A stretch of 64,000 nucleotides of DNA from an uncultured delta proteobacterium (GTDB lineage: Bacteria > Desulfobacterota > Desulfobacteria > Desulfobacterales > UBA11574): assembly GCA_963731025.1 (NCBI GenBank), contig CAVSVL010000042.1:9576-73575 (forward strand), given 5' to 3'. The position numbers were made by a program, and so were the translations under genes. Of the stretch, positions 15,523-32,897 are shown in pieces. The notes under the pieces were generated by a model. That model saw only the letters and a list, made by a program, of their open reading frames with translations, was not told where the DNA came from and made no database searches. Within the stretch, counting starts at the first letter, position 1. Each line of letters opens with the position of its first letter.

Positions 15523-15720
15523 ATGGCAAGACGAGTTATTATAGATAAAGATGAATGTATTGGCTGTGAGAGTTGCGTTGAACTTTGCTCAGAGGTCTTT
15601 GCATTTAACGAAGATGAAGAAAAAGCTGAAGTCATTCTTCCCGAAGGCGGACCTGAAGATTGCATTGAAGAAGCTATTGAATCTTGTCCCGTAGAATGCA
15701 TCCATTGGGAAGAAGATTAG
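15523..15720 (+). CDS. small ferredoxin (single-cluster Fer4_13-like)
   Basis: 65 aa from the internal ATG 15523. Motifs DECIGCESCVELC ... CPVECIHWE. Paralog of 24829..25023. Confidence 0.85.
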   Translation: MARRVIIDKDECIGCESCVELCSEVFAFNEDEEKAEVILPEGGPEDCIEEAIESCPVECIHWEED

Positions 15721-15911: not shown

Positions 15912-17531
15912 ATGAATAAAGTCGCTCAATTGGTAAAATGGATTATCGACATGTTGCGTGTTTTCAAATTCAATCTTTCTGACCCTGATCATTTTGTGGT
16001 TACGTTGGAACTGGTGCCCGGACGGGAAGCCTCCGGTCGCACGGTAGATTCCGTCTTGGGTATTGCCCGCGACGCTTTTAGCGATGGCCGCATAACAGCC
16101 GTTTCTATCACAGACAATCCAGGTGGTAATCCCTCGCTTAGTCCTGATGTTTTGGGCCACGATATTTTTAAAATCGGAATGGATGTCATTGTACATTTTA
16201 CCTGCCGGGATATGAATCGCGTGGGCATGGAAAGTCGAGCACTTCAACTTGCTAAGATGGGGATGAAAAATATTTTGGCTTTGAACGGAGACTATTCCGG
16301 CAAGGGGTTCGGTGGACAAGGGGCACCTGTTTTCGACATCGATTCGGTGCAACTGCAAATTATGATAGGTATGCTCAGCGAGCGCATTATAGCATCTGGT
16401 GATCCAGAGGGTTTCTTTGCAGGCTGTGCGGTCTCGCCGTTTAAGCGCACCGAAGGCGAAAGCTTTGCCCAATACGCCAAACTGTGTCGCAAAGCCGCGG
16501 CTGGCGCTCAATTCATCATCACCCAATTGGGGTATGATGCCCGCAAGTTTAAAGAATTGATTCAAATCCAAAAATTTATGGGTATCGAGTTACCAAGTTT
16601 GGGATCAGTCTATGTGCTGACTCCCAAAACTGCCGGCATTATCAATGCCGGCAAGGTACCGGGTGCAGTGGTTACCGATGCACTTTTAAGACGTGTTCAA
16701 GACGAGTGGAAAGATTCGATTTCAGGCCGTCAGACAGTCATTGAACGCGCCGCGAGACTGGCAGCCGTTCTCAAGGGACTCGGATATGCCGGGATCCACA
16801 TTGGTGGGATCCATCGGAGCTTCGATTTGGTAGGCCTCATTCTCGATCGCCTGGCAGTTATTCAGGACCAGTGGAAGGAGTTCCTGTCCGACTTTGACTT
16901 CCCTCAACCCGGTGGATTCTATGCCTTTCCTTCTCAGTCTGAGGAGGAATCTGGGGCACCCGGCTTCGGTCTTGATCCGCCCCGCCCCGGCCCGATTGAG
17001 CGTTTGCGATACTTTCTGTTAAGGCGCATACACGACACTATTTTTGAACCTCGCCATTCCTTAGGGCATACATGTCGCAAGTTATGTCAAATGATTGACG
17101 ACAAGCCTGGAAGCCAGTTGTTGATGTATCTGGTCGAAGATATGCCCAAGCGCCTGACCCTTGACTGCCTTAAGTGCGGCGACTGTGGTATTCAACATGT
17201 GGGTTTTTTGTGCCCTGAATCCCAATGCCCAAAACATATCCGCAATGGCGCCTGCGGCGGAAGCAGCAACGGCCGTTGCGAGGTATTCCCGGAACGTCCC
17301 TGTGTCTGGGTTCGTGCCTATCAGCGTTTGGTCAATGCAGGACAGACCCGACAGATAATTGACGGATGTGTCCCACCGCGGCTTTGGGAATTAAACCAAA
17401 CCTCGGCGTGGCTAAATTTTCATCTCCACCGCGATCATCAAGGGGTCTCCAACGAGATAGCCCGGAGATGCAACATCATCAACTGTCGGTTTAACCAACT
17501 GGCAGACGGTTCGCCAAAAAGCAAAGGATAA
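15912..17531 (+). CDS. metF: methylenetetrahydrofolate reductase fused to a C-terminal Cys-rich MTHFR_C domain
   Basis: 539 aa. MTHFR core (FVVTLELVPGRE.., ITDNPGGNP, VHFTCRDMNR) followed by CLKCGDCG..CPESQCPKHIRNGACGG..GRCEV, typical of the MTHFR C-terminal domain seen in anaerobes. Confidence 0.9.
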   Translation: MNKVAQLVKWIIDMLRVFKFNLSDPDHFVVTLELVPGREASGRTVDSVLGIARDAFSDGRITAVSITDNPGGNPSLSPDVLGHDIFKIGMDVIVHFTCRDMNRVGMESRALQLAKMGMKNILALNGDYSGKGFGGQGAPVFDIDSVQLQIMIGMLSERIIASGDPEGFFAGCAVSPFKRTEGESFAQYAKLCRKAAAGAQFIITQLGYDARKFKELIQIQKFMGIELPSLGSVYVLTPKTAGIINAGKVPGAVVTDALLRRVQDEWKDSISGRQTVIERAARLAAVLKGLGYAGIHIGGIHRSFDLVGLILDRLAVIQDQWKEFLSDFDFPQPGGFYAFPSQSEEESGAPGFGLDPPRPGPIERLRYFLLRRIHDTIFEPRHSLGHTCRKLCQMIDDKPGSQLLMYLVEDMPKRLTLDCLKCGDCGIQHVGFLCPESQCPKHIRNGACGGSSNGRCEVFPERPCVWVRAYQRLVNAGQTRQIIDGCVPPRLWELNQTSAWLNFHLHRDHQGVSNEIARRCNIINCRFNQLADGSPKSKG

Positions 17532-20403: not shown

Positions 20404-20655
20404 GGTTGCGACTACACTTCCAAACCAATAAATTTTTTTGTCCAAAAGATTCCATAATACAGTACGATTGTTAAATGAATATAAGAATGGAGTATTAAAT
20501 CAGCTTGGAATTATAAGATATTTTGACTTTTTGCAAGATATATAGTATTCTCACAGATAATATCTTTCACATCTTTGCCTACGATTAAAACTTCATCACC
20601 GACCCTTTTTTTATCAAAATATTAAACCAGCCATTATAGAAACATAAAATAAAAT

Positions 20656-20683
20656 TTGACAGGTATTCATTTGTTGTTACAAT
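20656..20683 (+). promoter_or_regulatory. sigma70-like promoter of the TetR-headed cluster
   Basis: TTGACA (20656..20661), 16-nt spacer, TACAAT (20678..20683). The -10 box abuts the 18-bp palindrome. Confidence 0.55.
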
Positions 20684-20700
20684 GTGAATAATAATTCACA
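20683..20700. promoter_or_regulatory. 18-bp palindromic operator, copy 1 (TGTGAAT-N4-ATTCACA)
   Basis: TGTGAATAATAATTCACA is a perfect 7+7 inverted repeat overlapping the -10 box and transcription start region of the TetR gene. Confidence 0.6.
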
Positions 20701-20713
20701 TATGGGGAGCACT

Positions 20714-21313
20714 ATGAGTATTGATAAATTGGATACCCAAATCAGGCAGGAACAGATCGCTCAGGCTGCGATGAATCTAATGAACACCACCGGTATGAAA
20801 GGGCTGAGTATTGCGAGAGTGGCGAAAAGAGTCGGACTGGTTCCCTCAGCGATTTACCGTCACTTTGAAAGTAAAGATCGAGTAATAGATGCCGTCCTGG
20901 ACGTTATCTTTGATCGACTCATGGACAATGTTTCGAAAGCATGTAGCGCAACTATTGACCCCTTTGAACGCCTTAAGTTGATTCTAACGCGTCATATACG
21001 CTTGATTTTAGAGAACCACGCAATTCCTCGGATTATTTTTTCTGAAGAGGTTTATAGTGGAAACATTGATCGAAAGGCAAAACTGAATCAGAAAATCGGC
21101 GGATATCTTGCTAAAATCAGTGAAATCGTTCGGCAGGGCCAGCACGAAAATCGCATCCGTAAAGATGTGGACTCGGATACTGTTTCCGTAATGTTCCTAG
21201 GAATTATCCAGCCGGCGGCGATACTTTGGCATATCAGTGATGAAACGTTTGATGTAACCAAACATGCCGAAAAGGCCTGGAAGATTTTTAAAGAATCACT
21301 GGAAACAGCTTAA
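20714..21313 (+). CDS. TetR/AcrR-family transcriptional regulator
   Basis: N-terminal HTH (GLSIARVAKRVGLVPSAIYRHFESKD) and an all-helical C-terminal part. Start uncertain: ATG 20702 or 20714, while the track GTG 20684 lies inside the operator. Confidence 0.9.
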   Translation: MSIDKLDTQIRQEQIAQAAMNLMNTTGMKGLSIARVAKRVGLVPSAIYRHFESKDRVIDAVLDVIFDRLMDNVSKACSATIDPFERLKLILTRHIRLILENHAIPRIIFSEEVYSGNIDRKAKLNQKIGGYLAKISEIVRQGQHENRIRKDVDSDTVSVMFLGIIQPAAILWHISDETFDVTKHAEKAWKIFKESLETA

Positions 21314-21329
21314 TTTTATTTAAATATAG

Positions 21330-21347
21330 TGTGAATATCAATTCACA
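21330..21347. promoter_or_regulatory. 18-bp palindromic operator, copy 2
   Basis: TGTGAATATCAATTCACA has the same 7+7 arms as copy 1. It lies 16 nt after the TetR stop and 45 nt before the hemerythrin start. Confidence 0.6.
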
Positions 21348-21392: not shown

Positions 21393-21950
21393 ATGAAACC
21401 GATTCAAGATTTAATAATGGAGCACGAAGCCGTCAAGTTGACGCTAAAGATTCTGGATAAAATTTGTACCAATATCGAGCAAACCGGAAAAATTTTGAAC
21501 CCGGAGCATTTGGATCAACTGATAGAATTTTTCATCGTATTTGTGGATAAATGCCATCATGGAAAAGAAGAAGAATTGCTTTTCCCGGCTCTGGAAGCGA
21601 TTGGGGTTCAAAGAGACGGCGGACCGATTGGGGTCATGCTCGCAGAACACCAGCAGGGGCGTGAATACGTCCAAAAAATGAATAAGGCGTTTTCACAATA
21701 CAATGAGGGTGACCGTGCAGCTGCAGCTCAGCTTGCTAAAAATGCAAGAGCGTACATCGCTTTATTGCGTCAACATATTGATAAAGAGAACAATGTCCTA
21801 TTTCCCATCGGGGATAATCGTCTGTCGGAAGAGAAAAAGGCGGAGTTATGGGAAGGTTTTGAGACAATAGAAAAACAAAAAATCGGAGTTGGAAAACACG
21901 AAGAGTTTCACAAAATGTTGGACCATTTAGAAAGTGTGTATATGAAGTAA
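21393..21950 (+). CDS. hemerythrin (HHE cation-binding) domain protein
   Basis: 185 aa. Motifs MEHEAVK, CHHGKEEELLFPALE, GPIGVMLAEHQQGR, HIDKENNVLFP are typical di-iron hemerythrin-like stress proteins. Confidence 0.85.
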   Translation: MKPIQDLIMEHEAVKLTLKILDKICTNIEQTGKILNPEHLDQLIEFFIVFVDKCHHGKEEELLFPALEAIGVQRDGGPIGVMLAEHQQGREYVQKMNKAFSQYNEGDRAAAAQLAKNARAYIALLRQHIDKENNVLFPIGDNRLSEEKKAELWEGFETIEKQKIGVGKHEEFHKMLDHLESVYMK

Positions 21951-22103
21951 GGTTTAACTGTTTTATTATAGTTGGTCTGGGAGGACCCATCATCCTCACC
22001 CAGTTTCCGAGCCAACTAAAAGGGGATTTGGATCGAGAAAGATTGGGCATAGAAACAAAACGTTGTGCATTTATTTAATGAGAATCTATATGGAGGTGAC
22101 ATT

Positions 22104-22394
22104 ATGTTTGTAGTTCTAATCTCTTTTCCGCCGATAAAAGCAGGCAAAGATGCTGAATTCCGAGAGTGGTTTGTCTCGTCAAACGAAGAATTCTCCAAGT
22201 TTAAGGGTTTTATCAGGAGGAGGCTTTTGAAGCCTTTTGGGGAGGGCAATTATGCCGCTATCGTTGAGTTTGAAAATCAAGATACTTTCAAGGCAGTGCA
22301 GAGCAGTCCTGCCCATGAAAAAGCAGGTGAGCATGTAAAACCACTATTTGACGGCAATCCCACGCCCCGTTTTTATCAAGTCGTCATAGGGTAG
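22104..22394 (+). CDS. antibiotic-biosynthesis-monooxygenase (ABM) domain protein
   Basis: 96 aa from the internal ATG 22104 with GGAGGTG upstream. Ferredoxin-like ABM layout (MFVVLISF..FKGFIRRRLLKP..YAAIVEFENQDTF). Confidence 0.7.
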   Translation: MFVVLISFPPIKAGKDAEFREWFVSSNEEFSKFKGFIRRRLLKPFGEGNYAAIVEFENQDTFKAVQSSPAHEKAGEHVKPLFDGNPTPRFYQVVIG

Positions 22395-22435: not shown

Positions 22436-23467
22436 ATGGTGGATTTATCAACCGAATATCTTGGTCTTAAACTAAAGAATCCTATAATCGTAGGAAGTTC
22501 GGGATTAACAAGCTCGGTTAAAAAGATAAAAAGTTTAGAAGGAAATGGTGCCGGCGCTGTTGTATTAAAATCTATTTTCGAGGAAGAGATAGCTTATGAG
22601 TATGAGGATTTTATCAAACAAGCAGGAAAAACCGGTTCTCCTCCCAAATACTTTGATTATGATGGTCGCAAAAATCCAATTGACTTTTATGATTACAAAA
22701 TTCGAGAGGATAATTTAAATAAATATATCAAACTTATTGAAGAGAGCAAGAGCAATGTTTCCATACCCGTTATTGCAAGTATCAACTGCTATTATCATTC
22801 CGCTGATTGGATAGCTTACGGCAGACACTTAGCACAAGCAGGAGCTGATGCACTCGAATTAAATATGTTCTTTTTACCATCAAACTTCAGCCGATCAAAA
22901 GAAGATACAGAAAGAATATATTTTCAGGTTATTGAGAAAATCCTGCAAGAAGTCTCTATCCCGGTCGCATTGAAAATTAGTCATTATTTCACCGATCTTG
23001 GGCCCATGATTCAAAAATTGTCAAAATCAGGCATTAAGGGACTGGTTCTCTTTAACCGCTTTTTTAGCCCCGATTTCGATATAGGCAAATTCCAAGTCGT
23101 GCCTTCATTCGTTTTCAGCACGCCTTCAGAATTGGCGATTTCTTTACGATGGATTGCAATAATGGCAGAAAAGGTCGACTGTGATCTTGCCGCTTCAACC
23201 GGTGTCCACGATGGCGATGCGGTTATTAAGCAGATTTTGGCCGGCGCCGATGCGGTTCAAGTCGTGTCTTGCCTATATAACCATGGTATAGGGTACCTTG
23301 AACAGTTGCTGGAGCGTTTAAAAAGCTGGATGGTGAGTAGAGGTTTTAAGCGATTATCTGATTTCAAAGGAAAAATGAGCCAGAGCAAAAGCATAGATCC
23401 ATCGATATATGAAAGAGCACAGTTCATGCGGTATTTTGGCGGTAAAAAAAATGTCAAGACTTATTGA
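22436..23467 (+). CDS. dihydroorotate-dehydrogenase-like flavoprotein (PyrD-fold, not canonical PyrD)
   Basis: 343 aa. TIM-barrel FMN motifs (NPIIVGSSGLT, GAGAVVLKSIFEEE, GADALELN, ASTGVHDGDAVIKQILAGADAVQV). Confidence 0.8.
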   Translation: MVDLSTEYLGLKLKNPIIVGSSGLTSSVKKIKSLEGNGAGAVVLKSIFEEEIAYEYEDFIKQAGKTGSPPKYFDYDGRKNPIDFYDYKIREDNLNKYIKLIEESKSNVSIPVIASINCYYHSADWIAYGRHLAQAGADALELNMFFLPSNFSRSKEDTERIYFQVIEKILQEVSIPVALKISHYFTDLGPMIQKLSKSGIKGLVLFNRFFSPDFDIGKFQVVPSFVFSTPSELAISLRWIAIMAEKVDCDLAASTGVHDGDAVIKQILAGADAVQVVSCLYNHGIGYLEQLLERLKSWMVSRGFKRLSDFKGKMSQSKSIDPSIYERAQFMRYFGGKKNVKTY

Positions 23468-23553
23468 TTATGTATCATCTCTTGGTTTAAAGCTTAGAAG
23501 TCTGATTATTAACTCAAAAACAGTGAATCCTCATTTTAAATCGACTGGAAGCA

Positions 23554-24714
23554 TTGGAAATGAAAAAAGTCAATGTTGTTGATACCGATTTAAACTTTAT
23601 TAAATCGGTAATATCCATAGGTGGGCATGATGTTAAAAAATGCTACCAGTGCGCAACATGTTCGGTTGTGTGTCCGATATCACCTGAATATAAACCGTTT
23701 CCACGCAAGGAGATGATTGCTGCTTCCTGGGGTTTGAAAGACCAATTATTAAAAGATGCAGATGTCTGGCTATGTCACAATTGTGGTGATTGTTCTGTCC
23801 ATTGTCCCAGAGAGGCAAAACCAGCGGATGTAATGTCGGCCATAAGGATGCAAGCAATTCTTGAATATGCATGGCCAAAGCCAATTGCAAAAGTCCTATC
23901 AGACCCTAAAAAACTTCCCTTGCTATTGACGATTCCTATCATTTTATTTATTATCGTTGGTGTGCCGACCGGATTGCTGAATTTCACTCCAGAAAGTGGA
24001 CCAATTGTTCATTCCCATTTTTTTTCCACATGGCTTGTTGACATAATCATGATTCCTGCTGCAGTTTGGGCTTTTTTGTCTTTTACAATAGGTTTAAATC
24101 GATTTATTAATGATATTCATCAGAATGCTCTATTAGAAGGGAAAACAAAAGAAAAAACAATTGATCCAAAAAGATTTATTCGTTCTCTCATCAGGACAGT
24201 TCCTGAAATACTCAAACATCAAAGATTTAGCAGATGTGGTGAAAATAACGAACGACCCACCGCACATATGATGGTGCTGTTCGGATATATAGGCCTTTTT
24301 GTCGTAACCAGTATCTTCTTTATTGCACTATATGTTTTCCAGGAACATGGACCTTATTCGCAATTAAATCCCGTTAAATGGCTGGCTAACATTAGCGGTG
24401 TAATTCTCATCATAGGTAGCGGGCTAATGATAAAAAGCCGGCTGTCCAAACCACAGCATATCTCCACATACTTTGACTGGTGCCTTATCTACCTCGTCTT
24501 TGGATTGGGAGTCACGGGTATGGCAACCGAAATGGCCCGTTTGGCTGGATGGGCTGCCGGAACATATGTTATATATTTCATTCACCTGATGCTTGTGTTT
24601 TGCTCATTTGCATACCTACCATACTCAAAATTCGCGCATTTGGTTTATCGGACGGCAGCTATTGCTTATGTGAAGTTTGCAGACAGAAAATTTAGCTTTA
24701 AAGATAATAGTTGA
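23554..24714 (+). CDS. QmoC-like membrane oxidoreductase subunit (HdrC-like 2x[4Fe-4S] domain fused to an HdrE/NarI-like membrane domain)
   Basis: 386 aa. CYQCATCSVVCP and CHNCGDCSVHCP cluster motifs, then about 6 hydrophobic helices. No qmoA/qmoB-like genes are adjacent. Confidence 0.75.
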   Translation: MEMKKVNVVDTDLNFIKSVISIGGHDVKKCYQCATCSVVCPISPEYKPFPRKEMIAASWGLKDQLLKDADVWLCHNCGDCSVHCPREAKPADVMSAIRMQAILEYAWPKPIAKVLSDPKKLPLLLTIPIILFIIVGVPTGLLNFTPESGPIVHSHFFSTWLVDIIMIPAAVWAFLSFTIGLNRFINDIHQNALLEGKTKEKTIDPKRFIRSLIRTVPEILKHQRFSRCGENNERPTAHMMVLFGYIGLFVVTSIFFIALYVFQEHGPYSQLNPVKWLANISGVILIIGSGLMIKSRLSKPQHISTYFDWCLIYLVFGLGVTGMATEMARLAGWAAGTYVIYFIHLMLVFCSFAYLPYSKFAHLVYRTAAIAYVKFADRKFSFKDNS

Positions 24715-24828
24715 CTTCAATGCCGGGAGCTTAATTTAGCTTTATAAATACTGTTTCAGATTATCCACACAAGTTCGTTTAATTTTGAAAAACTTGACCA
24801 CCAATGTTGTTATAGGAGGAAATATATC

Positions 24829-25023
24829 ATGGGAAAAAAAGTTTACATTGAAACGGAAGAATGTATCGGTTGCGAGAGTTGTGTTGAACTTTGCCCTGAA
24901 GTGTTTGGTTTTGACGAGGAGGCTGAAAAGGCTTTTGTTCTTATGCCGGAGGGCGGTTCTGAAGAATGCATTGATGAGGCCATCGAAACTTGTCCTGTTC
25001 AATGCATCCATTGGGATGAATAA
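24829..25023 (+). CDS. small ferredoxin (paralog of 15523..15720)
   Basis: 64 aa, AGGAGGA upstream. Motifs EECIGCESCVELC ... CPVQCIHWDE. Confidence 0.85.
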   Translation: MGKKVYIETEECIGCESCVELCPEVFGFDEEAEKAFVLMPEGGSEECIDEAIETCPVQCIHWDE

Positions 25024-25212
25024 AGGATAACATAGCCGTTATCTCCTGGTTGATAGGAAAGGCTAATCAGAGTGAAAATCTTTCCATTTGAGCCATACAC
25101 CGCCTGTTCCGGTGATTTAATGTTGTTTTTTCCATATTTTTGATTAACTATTTCGCATCTTGATCGTTTTTCACAGGATGTGGCATAAATTTCTTGCAGG
25201 GAGGATGAACCC

Positions 25213-27495
25213 ATGAACCTTCGACAGACTTTCCGTTCCGAACTCTCGGCGTGGTGGCGGGTGGGGCTCATATTTACCGTTATAGCAGGGTTTACAATTC
25301 TGATTTTTATAACGGTAAAGACATACAAAGACAGCCCCCCGATTCCAAAAAAGGTGGTCAATGCTGCAGGCGATACCGTCTTTACCGGCGAAGATATCTT
25401 GGCCGGCCAACAGGTATTTTTGAAGTATGCCTTGATGGAAAACGGCACCATCTGGGGGCATGGGGCCTATCTCGGCCCCGATTTTTCGGCTGAATATCTT
25501 CATGGCCTGGCCGAGGATGTCGGCGAAGCCCTGGCCCAGGAGCGTTATCATTTGGGATTAGAGGCGCTGCAGCCTGCGGAACGAGAAGCGGTGAAGGCCG
25601 AAATCCCGCAACTCCTCAAAAAAAATCGCTTCGATCCTAATGCGCAAACTTTGTTATTTACGAAGCCTGAAGAGAACTCCTACCGACGGCAAATCACCAA
25701 GTGGCAAAATCACTTTTCCCGGGAATCCAGCAATGGAGGGCTGCCCCCGAAATATCTGACCAATCACCAAGAACTTGAGCACCTTACCGCCTTTTTCGCA
25801 TGGACGGCGTGGGCGGCCGTGGCCAATCGCCCCGACAAGTCTTATTCATACACCAGCAATTTCCCCTATGATCCACTGGCCGGAAACACGCCGCCCGGCG
25901 CCGCCATTCTCTGGAGTGCTTTGAGCCTCATCACGCTGCTTGGCGGAACGGCGGCCATCTTGTTTGCCTTCGGCAAGTTTGACTATCTCGGCTGGAAACG
26001 CGGAAGCGAAGAATTGCGACCCCGGATGCTGCCGGGTGAGGCCACCGAAAGTCATCGGGCAATCTTAAAATACTTTGTGATCGTTGCCCTGCTTTTCCTC
26101 GCGCAGGTACTGATCGGCGGGGCCGTGGCCCACAACCGGGCTGAACCGGGCTCGTTTTACGGATTTAATCTATACCAGTTTCTGCCGACGACCATTCTGC
26201 GTACCTGGCATTTGCAGCTGGCGTTATTCTGGATCGCCACCTCTTATATCGGAGGCGGTCTGCTGCTTGCCAGTTCATTGGGCAAAAAAGAACCGAAGTA
26301 CCAGGCCAAGGGGATTCACCTCCTTTTCTGGGCGTTGGTTCTGGTCGTTGTCGGCAGCCTGCTGGGAGAACTCCTTGGAATCAATCAACTCCTCGGCAAT
26401 CTCTGGAGCTGGTTCGGCCATCAGGGCTGGGAATATCTCGATCTCGGGCGCGGCTGGCAAGTCCTGTTGGTGGTGGGTCTGGTCTTGTGGCTGATTTTGC
26501 TTTACCGAGTCGTTACCCCCGCATTGAAAGATCCCAAGCACAAGGAGATTACCACCCTGTTCATGATTGCCGCCTTGGCCATACCGCTTTTTTACCTTCC
26601 CGCCTTTTTCTTTAACAGCACATCCAACTATACCGTGGTGGACAACTGGCGTTTTTGGATTATCCACTTGTGGGTTGAAGGTTTCTTTGAGCTTTTTGTC
26701 ACCACCATGGTGGCGGTTCTTTTTTATCAACTCGGCCTGGTTTCCCGCAAGAACGCAACCCGTATAATCTACCTGGATGCCATCCTTTTCTTGGGGGCGG
26801 GTATCGTGGGGACCGGCCATCACTGGTATTGGACTGGACAAACCCATCTGAATATGGCGCTTTCAGCGCTGTTCTCCGCTATGGAGGTCATCCCCTTGAC
26901 CTTGCTTACACTGGACGCCTGGGATTTCGTAAGACTGACCCGCACCGGCGATGAGACCGGCAGGCAGAAGCGGCAGCTTCCGTATAAATGGGTGTTCTAT
27001 TTTTTGATGGCTGTTGGATTCTGGAATTTTGTCGGTGCCGGTATTTTTGGATTTCTCATCAATTTACCCATTATCAGCTACTTTGAGATCGGCACTGTCC
27101 TCACCCCAAACCATGGACATGCGGCCTTGATGGGGGTCTTCGGCATGGAAGCGGTGGCCCTGATGGTACTCGGGTTTCGACAGGTGCTCACGGACGAGCA
27201 ATGGAGACGGCCTGAGAAATTTATCCGGGTTTCATTCTGGGGACTCAATATCGGTCTTGCCCTGATGGTTGTGTGCAGTCTATTTCCTGAGGGAATATTC
27301 CAGCTCTCAGACGTCATAAACAATGGCTACTGGCACGCAAGGGGGGCTGACTATTTTACCATCCACACCGTCCGGCTTCTTGAATGGATGCGCTTGCCGG
27401 GCGACGCGGTATTCATCGTGTTCGGGGTCGTTCCCCTTGTTATAGCCGCAGTGATTACTTACGCGACCATGAAAAGGCAAGTCAGTGAATATTAA
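25213..27495 (+). CDS. norB: quinol-dependent nitric oxide reductase, large single-subunit form (qNOR)
   Basis: 760 aa. N-terminal TM helix plus a haem-less cytochrome-c-like extension (FTGEDILAGQQVFLKYALMENGTIWGHGAYLGPDFSAEYLH), followed by a haem-copper-oxidase-type 12-helix core with conserved His ligands. Confidence 0.95.
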   Translation: MNLRQTFRSELSAWWRVGLIFTVIAGFTILIFITVKTYKDSPPIPKKVVNAAGDTVFTGEDILAGQQVFLKYALMENGTIWGHGAYLGPDFSAEYLHGLAEDVGEALAQERYHLGLEALQPAEREAVKAEIPQLLKKNRFDPNAQTLLFTKPEENSYRRQITKWQNHFSRESSNGGLPPKYLTNHQELEHLTAFFAWTAWAAVANRPDKSYSYTSNFPYDPLAGNTPPGAAILWSALSLITLLGGTAAILFAFGKFDYLGWKRGSEELRPRMLPGEATESHRAILKYFVIVALLFLAQVLIGGAVAHNRAEPGSFYGFNLYQFLPTTILRTWHLQLALFWIATSYIGGGLLLASSLGKKEPKYQAKGIHLLFWALVLVVVGSLLGELLGINQLLGNLWSWFGHQGWEYLDLGRGWQVLLVVGLVLWLILLYRVVTPALKDPKHKEITTLFMIAALAIPLFYLPAFFFNSTSNYTVVDNWRFWIIHLWVEGFFELFVTTMVAVLFYQLGLVSRKNATRIIYLDAILFLGAGIVGTGHHWYWTGQTHLNMALSALFSAMEVIPLTLLTLDAWDFVRLTRTGDETGRQKRQLPYKWVFYFLMAVGFWNFVGAGIFGFLINLPIISYFEIGTVLTPNHGHAALMGVFGMEAVALMVLGFRQVLTDEQWRRPEKFIRVSFWGLNIGLALMVVCSLFPEGIFQLSDVINNGYWHARGADYFTIHTVRLLEWMRLPGDAVFIVFGVVPLVIAAVITYATMKRQVSEY

Positions 27496-27528: not shown

Positions 27529-27882
27529 ATGGAAATAAAAATCAAACGTGCATATGAAAATCCTAATGATACCGATGGGTACCGAATCCTGGTTGATCGG
27601 CTTTGGCCCAGGGGTGTTTCAAAAGAAAAGGCAAAAGTAGACTATTGGCCCAAAGAACTCGCCCCCTCAGCAGAGCTGCGCAACTGGTTTAGTCACGATT
27701 TAAATAAATGGCCTGAGTTCAAATCTCGTTATTTTAAGGAGTTAGATGGTAATCCAAAGCTGTTAAAAGAGCTTCTCCAGTATGTGCGTAAGGGAACGGT
27801 AACTTTTGTTTACAGTTCGAAAGAGCAACTGATAAACAATGCAGTTGCTCTTAAAGAGTATGTCGAGTCCTTAAATGGATAA
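27529..27882 (+). CDS. DUF488 (YeaO-like) protein
   Basis: 117 aa. Family-typical motifs IKRAYE...[37 protein letters not shown]. Confidence 0.8.
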
Positions 27883-28121
27883 AACTCCTCAGGTTTTGAT
27901 TGCGAGATAGGATCGCAGCTATTTTTTAAACCAACCACCATAACCAGATTGAAGCAGATCCCACGGACAAAATCCTTTCCGGACACGTTTCAAGATGCGG
28001 ATGGTGATGTTCTATATCCGGCAAGAGAAGTACTCGCCCGTCAGATTTATTACTTCAGCAGAGGACAGGTTCTCGTCTCAAATACACTATGAAATGGTTA
28101 TAGACCATAAAGGAGGAAACA

Positions 28122-28595
28122 ATGGGAAACGAAGATGTCTGTTATACAAGAGAAGTCGCCCTGGAAAAGGCGATTGAGATGGAGATGAAAAGTTTCCAAA
28201 CTTATAAAGAAGCCTATCTAAAAATTAGGGAACCTCGTGTCAAAGACCTTGTAAAAGATTTGGCACTGGAAGAATTAGAGCACAAATATATTTTGGAAAA
28301 AGCCTATTTTGAGGAAACTGTGGCACTTCATGAAGAAGGTATGAAAGAAGGTCCCAGTATGAAACTATCGCTTCTTTTAATGGAAAAACCTTTGGAAGAT
28401 GATGCTGACGATCAGGACGTTATGATACACGCCATCCATGATGAAAAGCGCGCCGTTGATTATTATAAAAAAATGGCCGAGCAGTGTGGTGGCGCTCCAA
28501 TGGAGGAGATGTTTAAAAGATTGTACCAGGATGAAGAGGCACATCTCGTTCGATTGGAAGAGCTATACGAAACTATTTATATGAAAGATATGTGA
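28122..28595 (+). CDS. rubrerythrin/ferritin-like di-iron protein
   Basis: 157 aa, AGGAGGA upstream. Paired E..ExxH motifs (EMEMKSF, LEELEHKY, HDEKRAVDYY, QDEEAHLVRL). Confidence 0.75.
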   Translation: MGNEDVCYTREVALEKAIEMEMKSFQTYKEAYLKIREPRVKDLVKDLALEELEHKYILEKAYFEETVALHEEGMKEGPSMKLSLLLMEKPLEDDADDQDVMIHAIHDEKRAVDYYKKMAEQCGGAPMEEMFKRLYQDEEAHLVRLEELYETIYMKDM

Positions 28596-28627
28596 CAAAT
28601 TTATACGGCGTTAAATGGAGAATCATT

Positions 28628-29047
28628 ATGAGCAAAACCGACACAAATACACTTTTAGATTTTTACAACATGCTGCTTGAAGCAGAACGTGCAGGTGTAA
28701 CTGTCCTGAGTGAAATGAACAAGCAAGTTGAGGATCAGCGATTAAAGCCTATTTTGGAAAAGTTTTTACGGGATGAAGGCGTCAACTGCCGTATCTTGGT
28801 AAGCCTTATTCATGATCTCAATGCCAAACCCAGCGACAAAACAGGGTCATTCGTGGACAAAATACGTGCACTGGACAATCTTGATGAAAAAATCCAGCTT
28901 TTGATCCGCGGTCAAGCATGGGTTGCGCGTAAAATTCGGGAGTTCCAAAGCCATCTTCCAACCGGATCGGCCTACTTATTCATGGACGCGATTAAGGTGC
29001 AGCATGAAGAAAATGTAGATACACTGAAAAAATATTTCGATGTATAG
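28628..29047 (+). CDS. hypothetical helical protein, possibly ferritin-like
   Basis: 139 aa from ATG 28628 (GGAGAA upstream). About 30 nt downstream of the preceding stop, co-directional. All-helical composition with E/H-containing repeats. No family recognised with confidence. Confidence 0.5.
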   Translation: MSKTDTNTLLDFYNMLLEAERAGVTVLSEMNKQVEDQRLKPILEKFLRDEGVNCRILVSLIHDLNAKPSDKTGSFVDKIRALDNLDEKIQLLIRGQAWVARKIREFQSHLPTGSAYLFMDAIKVQHEENVDTLKKYFDV

Positions 29048-29200
29048 AAATTCACTGGTTCCAATATCTATCTTATATGACTTTTTAATTCCTTGAAAAA
29101 AGTGCATACTTCTGCCTTATTCATCATGCATTCAAACCATCATATGAAGAGTGTTGATTGAGGTTCAGAATCATTAATACGAAACCTTAGATAGCTGCAA

Positions 29201-29225
29201 GTGCGCCACGAGCGCGCTTTTTATA
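29201..29225 (+). terminator. terminator-like hairpin ending the 20.7-29.0 kb cluster (alternatively the first 25 nt of the outer intron)
   Basis: GUGCGC-CACGA-GCGCGC (one G.U pair) followed by UUUUU. A GC-rich hairpin set in AT-rich intergenic DNA. Confidence 0.4.
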
Positions 29226-29925
29226 TAAAGTGTGCGTAACTGCACAAAAGATGAGGGTAGGCCCCTCGGAGCCGGCTTACAGGAGCAGGCTTCAAACCAC
29301 CTCAAGCTGCATAGGTAAAGAGCCTTTGTGGTGAGCGTTGAGGAAAAGGCATGGCAAAAGATCGTGTCAGGTGAGGATCAAGGAGATGAGCGCAAGCGAA
29401 TCACTGATGAGGTGTCGAAATATCAGAGATGGCGTCAAAACTGGGGTGCTTGCAGGTCTCCAGGATAAGCTCAGGGGAAACCTGTTTACTGCCTGAGCGG
29501 CGTCCGGCATAAAGGTGGCATGAACTTGATCCAGGCTTTTGTGCGGAACGTGGGGTGCGCTGGGAGAAGCTTGTGTTATCTTGCGGGTGGAAGTCCCGTC
29601 CGGCTAAAGCTTAGCGAGCGGGCCGGGAGCGAGTCTTGCGAGCGCCATGGTAACAGGGCGTTCGAAGCGTAGACAGCAGTTGTGCGGGGTGTGCTATTGA
29701 GCCACGAAATACGCTAATTGTGGAGGCCGAGACCGTCCCACGAGTCGAAGGCAGCATATGCACTGTCGTTATCGCGAGACAATGCTGCTCCACCGGGGTC
29801 TAAGAACACATCACGTACGAAAGGATGGCGCAGGAACCCAGGAAGCCCCGTCGGGTCCTATTGTTGGTCACTATAGGGGGATCAAGGCGAGGGAAGACCG
29901 GAGTCTTGGTCTGAGCTGAGGCGGG

Positions 29926-31440
29926 GTGGCGGACTGGGGTGTAGTACTGATGATGTCACCGAAGGAAAATAGTACGAGGTGTGCGGAGGGAAGGCCCCGG
30001 CCTGAGGGGATCTCTGGTGAGAAGGCGAAGGTCCGAACGCAGGGTCGGGCAGCCTTGCCAGCCAATCTTGCCAGAGTGAACGAGGCGGCGAGGAGATCGC
30101 GCAAGACCCGGTTTACAGCGTTGATGCATCACATGGATGTTGAGGCCCTAAGACGAGTCTTTAACCGGCAACGGCGGAAGGCCAGTGCAGGTGTCGATGG
30201 GGTTACGGTAGAAGAATATGAGGGTAATCTGGAAGCTAATCTTAAAGATTTATGCGACCGGGTGCACTCGGGATGCTACCGCCCTCAACCAGTGCGAAGG
30301 GTATACGTGCCCAAAGCTGACGGAGCCCAGCGACCGATTGGCATACCAGCTCTGGAAGACAAGATCGTCCAGGGATCGGTAGCCGAGGTTCTGAGCGCCA
30401 TATACGAAGTCGATTTTCTTGGCTTTTCGTATGGTTTTCGGCCTGGACGAAGCCCACATCAGGCGTTGGATGCTCTCAATGCAGCGCTAATTAAACGGAA
30501 AATAAACTGGGTGCTCGACGCAGATGTTCGCAGATTTTTCGACTCGGTTGACCACGAGTGGCTTTTGCGAATGGTTGCGCACAGGATAGCCGATCCACGG
30601 ATACTGCGGTTAATAAGACAGTGGCTGCGGGCAGGGGTCCTGGAGAGCGGCAAATGGTTCAAGACATTGGAAGGTACACCGCAAGGGGCTGGAATCAGCC
30701 CGATTTTAGCCAACATCTTCTTGCACTACAGTCTTGATCTTTGGGTTCATCAGTGGCGGCAGCGCCATGCTAAAGGAGAAGTCGTCATCGTGAGATACTG
30801 TGATGATTTCGTAATGGGCTTCGAGAAACAGACGGATGCGAAAAGCATGTTGGGTGAGCTCAAAGGGCGGCTAACAAAGTTTGGCCTCGGTCTGCATGAG
30901 AAGAAGACCCGTCTTCTGGAATTTGGCAGGTTTGCATCCGAGAGGAGAAAGAGACGGGGTATGCGACGCCCGCAGACGTTCGACTTTCTTGGATTCACGC
31001 ACTATTGCAGCATGAATAAGAAGGGACGTTTCTTTATTATGAGAAAGACTCAAGGTGCGCGCATGATACGTAAACTCAAGGAGTTGAGGATCGAAGCCAG
31101 GCGTCGGATGCATTGGCCGTTGAAGAAACAGCATCGCTGGTTGGCTGCTGTCCTAAGAGGTCATTATGCCTATTACGGGATTCTCGGGAACTCGCGTGCC
31201 TTATCGAGCTTTGCCTATGAGGTTCGTAAGTTGTGGTTCCGGGCATTGTGCCGACGAAGTCAGAAAAATGCGATGACCTGGGAACGATTTAACCGGCTTC
31301 TTAAGGTTTTTTTTTCCTCTCCCAATTCCAAGAATCATTCGCACCTAAAACGATGGCCTCAGCTGATCTTGGGTTACCTTCGGGAGGAGCCCATTGCGGG
31401 AAAGCCGCACGATGGGATCTGTGGGGGTGAAAGCCGGTAA
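29926..31440 (+). CDS. group II intron reverse transcriptase/maturase (IEP of the inner intron), no endonuclease domain seen
   Basis: RT blocks GVDGVTVEEY, RRVYVPKADGAQRPIGIPALEDKIVQ, FSYGFRPGRSPHQA, GTPQGAGISPILANIFLH, active site YCDDFVMGF, X/maturase region LRGHYAYYG. Likely start MMSPKEN at 29950. The last ~19 codons overlap domains V/VI. Confidence 0.9.
   Translation: MADWGVVLMMSPKENSTRCAEGRPRPEGISGEKAKVRTQGRAALPANLARVNEAARRSRKTRFTALMHHMDVEALRRVFNRQRRKASAGVDGVTVEEYEGNLEANLKDLCDRVHSGCYRPQPVRRVYVPKADGAQRPIGIPALEDKIVQGSVAEVLSAIYEVDFLGFSYGFRPGRSPHQALDALNAALIKRKINWVLDADVRRFFDSVDHEWLLRMVAHRIADPRILRLIRQWLRAGVLESGKWFKTLEGTPQGAGISPILANIFLHYSLDLWVHQWRQRHAKGEVVIVRYCDDFVMGFEKQTDAKSMLGELKGRLTKFGLGLHEKKTRLLEFGRFASERRKRRGMRRPQTFDFLGFTHYCSMNKKGRFFIMRKTQGARMIRKLKELRIEARRRMHWPLKKQHRWLAAVLRGHYAYYGILGNSRALSSFAYEVRKLWFRALCRRSQKNAMTWERFNRLLKVFFSSPNSKNHSHLKRWPQLILGYLREEPIAGKPHDGICGGESR
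31387..31419 (+). other. domain V of the inner group II intron
   Basis: GAGCCCAUUGCGG-GAAAG-CCGCA-CG-AUGGGAUC: AGC triad, 2-nt CG bulge, GAAA-type loop. The triad G faces A instead of the usual U. Confidence 0.6.
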
Positions 31441-31640
31441 CGGCTGATCTACCCGACAACCTGTCGGCCCGATGCTAAGGGAGAAACTCAAGTGGAAGAC
31501 CCACGAGAGTGAGAGTACCGATACAGGCCACGGGGGCGGAGCAACCCGTATTAGTGATGAGGTCTCTGTAATGGAGGTGGAGCGAAGGGGTTGCATCGAC
31601 CAGCTTTATAATATGGTCAACCATATAATGGGAGGAGCCA

Positions 31641-32897
31641 TTGAGTAAGGCAAAGCCGTTTAGTATTTCCAAACGAGTTGTGTTTGAGTCATACAAGCGG
31701 GTAAAAGCGAACAAAGGAGCAGCAGGAGTAGAGCGGGAATCGATTTCGGATTTTGAGAAGGACTTAAAGAACAATCTATACAAAATTTGGAATCGGATGT
31801 CGTCGGGCAGCTATTTTCCACCACCGGTTCGGGTGGTAGAGATAGCGAAGAAGGATGGTGGTCAAAGAAGATTGGGAGTGCCCACAGTGGCCGACCGCAT
31901 CGCACAAATGGTAGCGAAGGAGTATCTGGAACCATTTGTGGAGCCGCATTTTCATCCTGATTCATATGCTTATAGACCAAACAAATCAGCGATTCAGGCT
32001 GTGGGAGTAGCGCGCAAGAGGTGTTGGCATTACGACTGGGTTTTGGATCTTGATATTAAAGGGTTTTACGACAACATTGATCATGATCTGCTGATGCGTG
32101 CTGTTCGAAGACACACCGATTGTAAATGGATACTGCTATACATTGAGCGGTGGCTCAAAGCCCAGGCTCAACTGGAGGATGGTTCTCTGGTAGCCCGTGA
32201 CAAAGGGACTCCCCAGGGTTCGGTGATCAGTCCGCTGTTAGCCAATCTCTTTTTGCATTATGCGTTTGATGAGTGGATGAGGCGAAACCATCCGCATATT
32301 CCGTTCGAGCGTTACGCCGATGATATCATCGTGCACGGCAAAAGCGAGAGGCAAGCAGAGTGGATAAAGTCGGTCATTGAAAAGCGGCTTTTGGAGTGTA
32401 AGCTGGAACTGCATCCTGAGAAGACGCAGATTGTCTATTGTAAGGATGATTACAGGCGGGGAAATTATGTAAACGAGAAATTTGATTTCTTGGGTTATAC
32501 GTTCAGACCTCGCGGAGCAAAGGCTCGACATAAGAAAAGATTCTTCGTAGGCTTCAATCCTGCTGCATTAAGCAACAAAGCGGCAAAATCCATGGGGGAT
32601 ACCATTAGGAGCTGGGAAATTCATCTGATGAGTGATAAGTCGATTGAGGAGATTTCACGCATCATAAACTCTGTTGTGCGGGGGTGGATCAATTATTATG
32701 GCAAATATTACAGGTCGGCGCTTTATCCGATATTCAACCAACTTAACAAGGCTCTGAGAAAGTGGGCGATGAGGAAATGCAGAAGGTTGCGAGGGCGAAA
32801 GCGGAAGGCTGCCCTTTGGTTACGAAGGATAGCCCGTCGCGATCGAGGTTTGTTTGCACACTGGAGATTTAGTGCAGGATCTTTGGCTGGTCGATAG
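31641..32897 (+). CDS. group II intron reverse transcriptase/maturase (IEP of the outer intron), compact En-less type
   Basis: 418 aa, TTG start 4 nt after GGAGGAG. RT blocks VKANKGAAGVE, PPVRVVEIAKKDGGQRRLGVPTVADRIAQ, YAYRPNKSA, GTPQGSVISPLLANLFLH, active site YADDIIVHG, X domain VRGWINYYGKYY. Confidence 0.9.
   Translation: MSKAKPFSISKRVVFESYKRVKANKGAAGVERESISDFEKDLKNNLYKIWNRMSSGSYFPPPVRVVEIAKKDGGQRRLGVPTVADRIAQMVAKEYLEPFVEPHFHPDSYAYRPNKSAIQAVGVARKRCWHYDWVLDLDIKGFYDNIDHDLLMRAVRRHTDCKWILLYIERWLKAQAQLEDGSLVARDKGTPQGSVISPLLANLFLHYAFDEWMRRNHPHIPFERYADDIIVHGKSERQAEWIKSVIEKRLLECKLELHPEKTQIVYCKDDYRRGNYVNEKFDFLGYTFRPRGAKARHKKRFFVGFNPAALSNKAAKSMGDTIRSWEIHLMSDKSIEEISRIINSVVRGWINYYGKYYRSALYPIFNQLNKALRKWAMRKCRRLRGRKRKAALWLRRIARRDRGLFAHWRFSAGSLAGR

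Follow-up and report, generated by a model that had tools for sequence, protein, structure and literature searches.

A diverged QmoC paralogue and a small ferredoxin in N-oxide-stress islands of Desulfobacterales: a possible electron link between the quinone pool and nitric oxide-stress enzymes

Several described systems join a haem b membrane protein to cytoplasmic iron-sulfur clusters. QmoC, the membrane subunit of QmoABC, has an HdrC-like part with two [4Fe-4S] clusters and a di-haem-b-type membrane domain, and to our knowledge all discussion of it to date has treated it as a part of QmoABC-AprAB. In HdrED, DsrMK and TmcBC a membrane haem b subunit hands quinol electrons to cytoplasmic iron-sulfur modules, and in sulfate reducers the flow through modules of the HdrE/NarI type (Qmo, DsrMK, Tmc) is inward. 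TcuAB (tricarballylate dehydrogenase, with the membrane protein TcuB) and mycobacterial EtfD link a soluble flavoprotein to the quinone pool through an iron-sulfur/NarI-like haem b membrane protein. Here we describe a locus within a 64,000-nt stretch of DNA from an uncultured Desulfobacterales sulfate reducer (assembly GCA_963731025.1, contig CAVSVL010000042.1). We call the full stretch the window and its source genome G000; labels beginning with G, L, P or C denote other genomes, loci and contigs. The locus carries, co-directionally on the + strand, genes for a dihydroorotate dehydrogenase-like flavin mononucleotide (FMN) protein (DHODL), a QmoC-type protein that we call QmoC2, a 64-aa ferredoxin (Fd) and a quinol-dependent nitric oxide (NO) reductase (qNOR). 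We found that QmoC2 represents a subfamily of QmoC that has diverged and is no longer coupled to QmoAB, and that it is tied to the small ferredoxin and confined to N-oxide-stress neighbourhoods. We tentatively propose, with a probability of roughly 0.4, that QmoC2 and Fd form an accessory link from the quinone pool to ferredoxin for NO-stress enzymes, in which electrons would flow from menaquinol through QmoC2 and Fd to cytoplasmic reductases.

The QmoC-type open reading frame (ORF) had been listed as 23554-24714 with a TTG start; the ATG at 23560 is a likelier start, and we place the gene at 23560-24714 (+). Its product matched the qmoC equivalog model NF038018 over the full length of the model (positions 1-360) with 483 bits, above the cut-off of 300. 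The protein joins an HdrC-like part with two [4Fe-4S] clusters to a six-helix NarI/HdrE-like membrane domain, and the cysteines of the two CxxCxxCxxxC motifs (C28/31/34/38 and C72/75/78/82) as well as five histidines of the membrane domain (H187/220/236/342/360) are invariant in QmoC2 and canonical QmoC. Alignment of the two groups gave 111 shared invariant positions and four fixed differences. Because the iron-sulfur cysteines and the shared histidines are kept in a homologue of the Qmo subunit, QmoC2 would be expected to interact with menaquinol as Qmo does. An AlphaFold2 model (pLDDT 78) was matched by Foldseek to HdrC in its N-terminal part and to NarI in its membrane part, with weak E-values (0.03-0.1), and EtfD of M. 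smegmatis was among the top fold matches. The TcuB model NF011607 gave 84.6 bits, below its cut-off of 524.

A previous sequence-only reading of this DNA had described a QmoC-type protein standing alone. Locally this is so, but it does not hold for the genome as a whole: contig C9 of G000 carries a canonical sat / aprBA-qmoABC cluster, and QmoC2 is a diverged paralogue and not a lone remnant of Qmo. The identity of QmoC2 to the canonical QmoC of the same genome is 57%, and to canonical QmoC in general 57-66%. In a quick, midpoint-rooted tree with 55 outside sequences (54 metagenome loci with qmoB upstream and the G000 copy from aprBA-qmoABC), QmoC2 and seven metagenomic relatives of 70-80% identity formed a clade of eight (SH-aLRT 100, stem 0.44), outside the clade formed by QmoC proteins from qmoAB loci.

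QmoC2 is rare. Although 365 of 401 genomes of the same order carry QmoC, a QmoC2-type copy was found only in G000 and G312, and an additional 400-genome sample of the phylum gave no more, which makes two of about 800 sampled phylum genomes plus a few metagenome contigs. The window has the order hemerythrin-ABM-DHODL-QmoC2-Fd-qNOR. In G312 (locus L019) the order, with tight gaps, is Crp, DUF1858/cupin, DHODL, QmoC2, Fd, a second qNOR (qNOR'), ScdA and Hcp, and in L022 narGHJI and a SLAC1 gene precede DHODL and QmoC2, with an insertion sequence and pseudogene debris beyond. Locus L221 reads Hcp, rubredoxin/cupin, QmoC2, Fd and a flavodiiron-like partial ORF; contig P0121 hemerythrin, DUF6448, cupin, QmoC2 and Fd; and contig P0122 hemerythrin, a 95-aa ORF, QmoC2 and Fd. 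Finally, G408, of the same genus as G000, has DHODL, a QmoC2 stub, Fd, a 124-aa ORF and a NorV-type flavodiiron protein (FDP) gene (NF008887, 745 bits). Every context contains N-oxide genes (qNOR, NorV-type FDP, Hcp, hemerythrin/ScdA or narGHJI) around QmoC2, and neither qmoA nor qmoB adjoins QmoC2 in any context examined. Fd directly follows QmoC2 in five of the six intact contexts, and DHODL precedes it in three.

As a control we took 80 QmoC loci (identity of 66% or less) among the metagenome matches listed with the QmoC2 alignment, all of them canonical QmoC. In 59 of these qmoA/B was adjacent and 21 were cut at a contig edge, and none of the 80 had DHODL, Fd, qNOR or Hcp. QmoC2-Fd is thus a rare two-gene cassette, derived from the Qmo membrane subunit and no longer tied to QmoAB. 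The survey of neighbourhoods that the sequence-only reading had called for also showed the DHODL-QmoC2 pair in three independent contexts (the window, G312/L019 and L022), all among N-oxide genes, and no wide occurrence of the pair with a known different function was seen. The constant neighbour of QmoC2 in these contexts is Fd and not DHODL, and G408 has lost QmoC2 yet keeps DHODL and Fd.

These contexts also bear on the possibility that the genes are merely co-located and form no dedicated circuit, QmoC2 being a stress-expressed spare or alternative subunit for QmoAB (for example one replacing NO-damaged QmoC), and Fd and DHODL being independent of it. The closeness of QmoC2 to canonical QmoC over the shared invariant positions would fit this, as would the second QmoC match given by both QmoC2 genomes, which in G000 is the canonical qmoABC, and the make-up of the island as a mosaic of shuffled cassettes. 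On the other hand the long stem and monophyly of QmoC2 point to a changed constraint, Fd recurs after QmoC2 in different backgrounds in a way that is hard to obtain by chance, and QmoC2 never lies near qmoAB. We therefore regard a spare QmoC as unlikely.

None of the other searched members of the genus carries QmoC2. In G408 codons 1 to about 46 are left (L135:7524-7658), the rest having been removed by a clean 1-kb deletion between TATAAA microhomologies, and the flanking DHODL and Fd genes are intact at 95% identity. Two further genomes lack QmoC2: G402 has DHODL without QmoC2 or qNOR, and in G406 DHODL is truncated. Another locus retains a frameshifted QmoC2 fragment (aa 33-161; L034:7953-8338) after ABM and DUF488. 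The deletion, the broken fragment and the absence elsewhere in the genus could indicate that QmoC2 is a recently acquired and decaying passenger without a current role in G000, but the ORF in the window is intact with all cofactor ligands, the identical QmoC2 sequence occurs in contigs of several independent samples, and the clade as a whole is strongly conserved at its 70-80% identity. A decaying passenger therefore seems very improbable.

The ferredoxin gene lies at 24829-25023 (+; Fer4_13, PF13370, 62.5 bits). Read from its sequence, Fd is a single-cluster protein with the cysteine pattern of Desulfovibrio gigas FdI/II, in which C12, C15, C18 and C55 are predicted ligands, with C22 and C47 in addition. 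A 67%-identical paralogue is found in the window at 15523-15720, about 190 nt before a methylenetetrahydrofolate reductase gene (15912-17531, with a C-terminal DUF5981); this region has a 97%-identical 1.8-kb copy at G000:C43:64161-65942. At G000:C1:5957-7320 a ferredoxin of the same small single-cluster type, distant in sequence (35% identity), comes directly after a second flavodiiron gene, without QmoC2, and we count this pair in favour of a link between Fd and FDP.

The gene for qNOR (25213-27495, +) encodes a NorB cytochrome-c-like N-terminal domain fused to a haem-copper oxidase domain (PF22085, 188 bits; PF00115, COX1, 177 bits), and the protein matched the Geobacillus stearothermophilus enzyme (3AYF) with 583 bits. 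The quinol-site residues of that enzyme, reportedly His328, Glu332, Phe336 and Asp746 (Matsumoto et al. 2012), have identical equivalents in the window protein at all four positions of the alignment to 3AYF. The window qNOR is accordingly predicted to be a genuine quinol-dependent enzyme. The qNOR' of G312/L019 is only 38% identical to it and of the Achromobacter xylosoxidans type, and its quinol motif is also kept.

DHODL (22436-23467, +) scored 400 bits against NF005741 (PRK07565, 'dihydroorotate dehydrogenase-like protein'; cut-off 303). Its AlphaFold2 model (pLDDT 89) has the fold of an FMN TIM-barrel, with dihydropyrimidine dehydrogenase (DPD) and DHODA as top Foldseek matches (E about 1e-17, TM 0.68-0.74). 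It had been suggested from the sequence that DHODL is not a canonical dihydroorotate dehydrogenase, and we can confirm this. The true PyrD model NF005574 gave 79 bits, below its cut-off of 269, and G000 has a separate, real PyrD (439 bits). In a profile alignment to DPD and DHODB the catalytic loop ELN-x-S-C-P is replaced by ELNMFFLP, so that the catalytic cysteine is gone. The loop is ELN(M/L)FF(L)P throughout the family, with F145 invariant in 78 sequences; Phe at the catalytic Cys (DPD C671, DHODB C135) and Asp at DPD Asn609 mark both replacements across these 78 members. The active-site residues of DHODL are conserved across all clades of the family tree. We had considered DHODL as an NO-resistant substitute dihydroorotate dehydrogenase and ruled this out, because the catalytic Cys and the pyrimidine-binding Asn are replaced family-wide.

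We surveyed 80 species-representative DHODL loci and found no intact QmoC beside DHODL in any of them. The recurrent neighbours were narGHJI-SLAC1, qNOR, Hcp (often with a Crp-family regulator) and FDP. One locus, L026, reads FDP-ABM-DHODL-qNOR and resembles the window without the QmoC2-Fd insert. ABM is itself a repeated neighbour of DHODL, adjacent to it in L026, G408 and G406. In the DHODL tree all 20 rows near Nar, qNOR, Hcp or QmoC2 fell into one clade of 46 rows, and none of the other 32 rows had such neighbours. The 46-row clade has an SH-aLRT of 80 and its two subclades 100 and 99, with QmoC2 attached in both; it consists of Desulfobacterales, in which nar, qNOR, hcp and FDP genes lie beside DHODL repeatedly without QmoC2. 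DHODL is thus a member of a clade associated with N-oxide genes, within a DPD-like family that lacks the catalytic Cys. In Desulfobacterales, narGHJI and DHODL regularly have between them a gene for an anion channel of the SLAC1/TehA type (L022:6060-7139; L038, L040, L071 and L073), which could be a nitrite or nitrate channel.

Outside the N-oxide clade, a 500-920 aa GltD/PreT-like iron-sulfur NAD(P)H flavoprotein is encoded directly upstream of DHODL at eight loci from Calditrichota, Bacteroidales and Desulfobacterales (L048:6979-9741, L055, L059, L085, L091, L093, L100 and L104). This pairing is a split DPD-like arrangement. DPD (PreT/PreA) and the class 1 dihydroorotate dehydrogenases share the FMN TIM-barrel with DHODL, and the relatives of DHODL have an iron-sulfur NAD(P)H subunit as DPD does; DHODL differs in the change of Cys to Phe and of Asn609 to Asp, and in having no C-terminal iron-sulfur domain. 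Because its relatives pair with a GltD/PreT-like subunit, the most fitting view of DHODL is that of a terminal FMN subunit which would receive its electrons by way of iron-sulfur clusters, as in DPD.

Taken together, these observations can be arranged into the following proposal. The menaquinone pool would exchange electrons with QmoC2 through its haem b membrane domain, and the two [4Fe-4S] clusters of QmoC2 would pass them to Fd. Fd would then serve the soluble enzymes of the islands, namely the DHODL FMN reductase, NorV-type FDP, Hcp and the di-iron proteins, and qNOR would draw directly on the same quinol pool. DHODL may be the FMN subunit of a DPD-like enzyme that lost its GltD/PreT-type partner in this clade and would receive electrons from Fd or QmoC2 instead. 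The gene identities, the cofactor ligands, the distinct clade and the contexts are direct observations, from which we infer the physical partnership, the inward direction of flow and the kind of substrate. The inward direction is favoured because it accounts for the contexts with FDP and Hcp in addition to those with qNOR, because Qmo, DsrMK and Tmc run this way in sulfate reducers, and because it fits DHODL as an electron acceptor. A more specific form of the proposal, in which QmoC2-Fd is a dedicated menaquinol:ferredoxin oxidoreductase powering NorV-type FDP, Hcp and a DHOD/DPD-superfamily FMN reductase of a new kind with a substrate tied to N-oxide stress, is in our view less likely than not.

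The chief alternative reverses the flow: reduced Fd, or DHODL oxidising some substrate, or both, would reduce QmoC2 and through it menaquinone, and the menaquinol would be used by qNOR and NarGHI, as in an input module of the TcuAB or EtfD type. The sequence-only reading had likewise proposed a local menaquinone feed for qNOR. DHODL-QmoC2-Fd does lie directly upstream of two qNORs that are only 38% identical and both have the quinol motif. DHODL-QmoC2 also occurs once directly after narGHJI-SLAC1, and with qNOR and Nar both being quinol oxidisers, three contexts fit. QmoC2 matches TcuB (84.6 bits) and the EtfD fold, both of which pass flavoprotein electrons to quinone, and transfer from reduced Fd to menaquinone is strongly exergonic. 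However, a feed of menaquinone leaves unexplained the loci in which QmoC2-Fd stands before soluble FDP genes or next to Hcp and where neither qNOR nor Nar is visible (L221, G408), and L026 has DHODL-qNOR without QmoC2 or Fd. Menaquinol is available to a sulfate reducer by other routes, and qNOR needs quinol only. The GltD-type NAD(P)H donors paired with DHODL relatives outside the N-oxide clade suggest a reductase and not a dehydrogenase, and DHODL lacks the catalytic base required for substrate oxidation of the DHOD type. The haem potentials of Qmo, too, reportedly favour reduction by menaquinol (Pires et al. 2003), which we count against the reversed flow. We regard the reversed flow as rather doubtful.

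Several points weigh against our own proposal. Electron transfer from menaquinol to a low-potential [4Fe-4S] ferredoxin is energetically unfavourable except with a high Fd potential or with NO reduction pulling the step, and TcuB and EtfD, of the same architecture, run in the opposite direction. Only about seven QmoC2 contexts are at hand, part of them from related organisms, and the presence in two of about 800 genomes means that the co-location may partly be the result of cassette shuffling in a recombination hot spot. QmoC2 is dispensable, given the clean deletion in G408 of the same genus and the frameshifted fragment in L034. Also, DHODL, Fd and qNOR are each found without QmoC2 (ABM-DHODL-qNOR in L026; DHODL-Fd in L058 and L060), and the gaps in the window are loose: 92, 114 and 189 nt between DHODL, QmoC2, Fd and qNOR.

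With respect to the described systems, QmoC2 resembles QmoC in domain architecture, in cofactor ligands and in its score on the qmoC equivalog, but it has no adjoining qmoA, qmoB or aprBA and its neighbours are Fd, DHODL and NO-stress genes. Compared with TcuAB and EtfD, the flavoprotein here is an FMN protein of the DHOD/DPD fold and neither TcuA nor ETF, and the TcuB match is far below its cut-off. In contrast to HdrED, DsrMK and TmcBC, QmoC2 has no CCG/HdrD-type catalytic domain, and its proposed acceptor is a free ferredoxin. The rubredoxin-dependent flavodiiron NO reductases (NorVW) and Hcp-Hcr are comparable as soluble NO reductases with a dedicated small carrier encoded alongside, but the carrier here would be Fd charged from a membrane QmoC-type protein and not from an NADH-dependent reductase. 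In anaerobes, little is established about what donates electrons in the cell to Hcp and to flavodiiron NO reductases that have no rubredoxin. In the literature searched, neither QmoC-type nor DHOD-like proteins were connected with NO reductases or nitrosative stress, and no characterised system of this composition was described, in agreement with the earlier reading.

QmoC2 and its neighbours are part of a nitrosative-stress (N-oxide) island of mosaic structure in the genome of this Desulfobacterales sulfate reducer. It consists of shuffled cassettes native to the genus, those shared between genomes having 85-96% DNA identity. Ten genes lie on the + strand from 20.6 to 29.1 kb, in the order TetR, hemerythrin-like, ABM-fold, DHODL, QmoC2, Fd, qNOR, DUF488, rubrerythrin-like and DUF6306. 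The TetR-family regulator (20684-21313, +; Pfam TetR_N and TetR_C_4) is followed by a hemerythrin-like di-iron protein (21393-21950, +; PF01814, 83 bits), which is kin to the C-terminal domain of RIC/YtfE and has 46 bits on TIGR03652, under the cut-off of that model. The 109-aa ABM-fold protein (22065-22394, +; PF03992) comes before DHODL. Downstream, the DUF488 gene (27529-27882, +; PF22752/PF04343) starts 33 nt past qNOR, and the rubrerythrin-like and DUF6306 gene pair (28122-29047, +) is a cassette common to the genus. A second N-oxide island of G000 (L222; C14:408900-418650) contains hemerythrin, DUF6448, NorV-type FDP, DUF6306 and narGHJI, and this sulfate reducer also encodes a respiratory nitrate reductase. 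G000 has four Prismane-family (Hcp-family) genes.

Upstream of tetR, at 20656-20700 (+), a promoter TTGACA-16-TACAAT is overlapped by an 18-bp palindrome, TGTGAAT-N4-ATTCACA. The palindrome recurs exactly, together with a -10-like TATAGT, ahead of the hemerythrin gene at 21325-21347 (+), and no further exact copy was present in the window, the regions upstream of DHODL, QmoC2, Fd and qNOR having been checked. The palindrome is likely the operator through which TetR controls the island, and 21325-21347 is likely the start of a transcription unit running from the hemerythrin gene to DUF488. We saw no convincing terminator between these two genes, and a terminator-like hairpin with a T-run at 27900-27927 (+) may mark where the unit ends. 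One unit under TetR control is plausible. Promoter and terminator scans scored no better than shuffled sequence. A sigma-54-like motif before qNOR (TGGCAT...TTGCA) was dropped, its spacing being wrong by eye. In G408 an RND efflux pair (HlyD, AcrB) lies between the TetR and hemerythrin genes.

The gene arrangement is not an artefact or chimera of assembly, because contigs from other samples and studies bridge each of the DHODL-QmoC2, QmoC2-Fd and Fd-qNOR junctions. The G000 assembly (4.16 Mb in 43 contigs) is 93% complete and 7.6% contaminated, and we considered whether the window contig is itself contamination; this was ruled out, as segments of the island are common to genomes of the same genus at 85-96% DNA identity. 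Two group II intron-type reverse transcriptase ORFs, of 504 aa (RVT_1) and 418 aa (RVT_1 and GIIM), directly follow the island at 29926-32897. Many copies of a sequence of about 370 nt (29183-29555) occur across the genomes of the genus, and a stretch of about 50 nt upstream of tetR (20491-20541) is a small dispersed repeat found in many contigs of G000 and its relatives.

If our proposal is correct, a QmoC paralogue has been rewired to a ferredoxin in NO-stress islands, which would mean that this membrane module is reusable. It would also connect the defence of sulfate reducers against nitrosative stress with their quinone pool. The more specific form of the proposal, if true, would add a new respiratory-type branch for NO defence and would give the Cys-less DHOD-like family a first function. 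The DHODL survey gives the PRK07565 family its first consistent contexts, either a GltD/PreT-type subunit or, in Desulfobacterales, nar, qNOR, hcp and FDP genes, and makes its function experimentally approachable.

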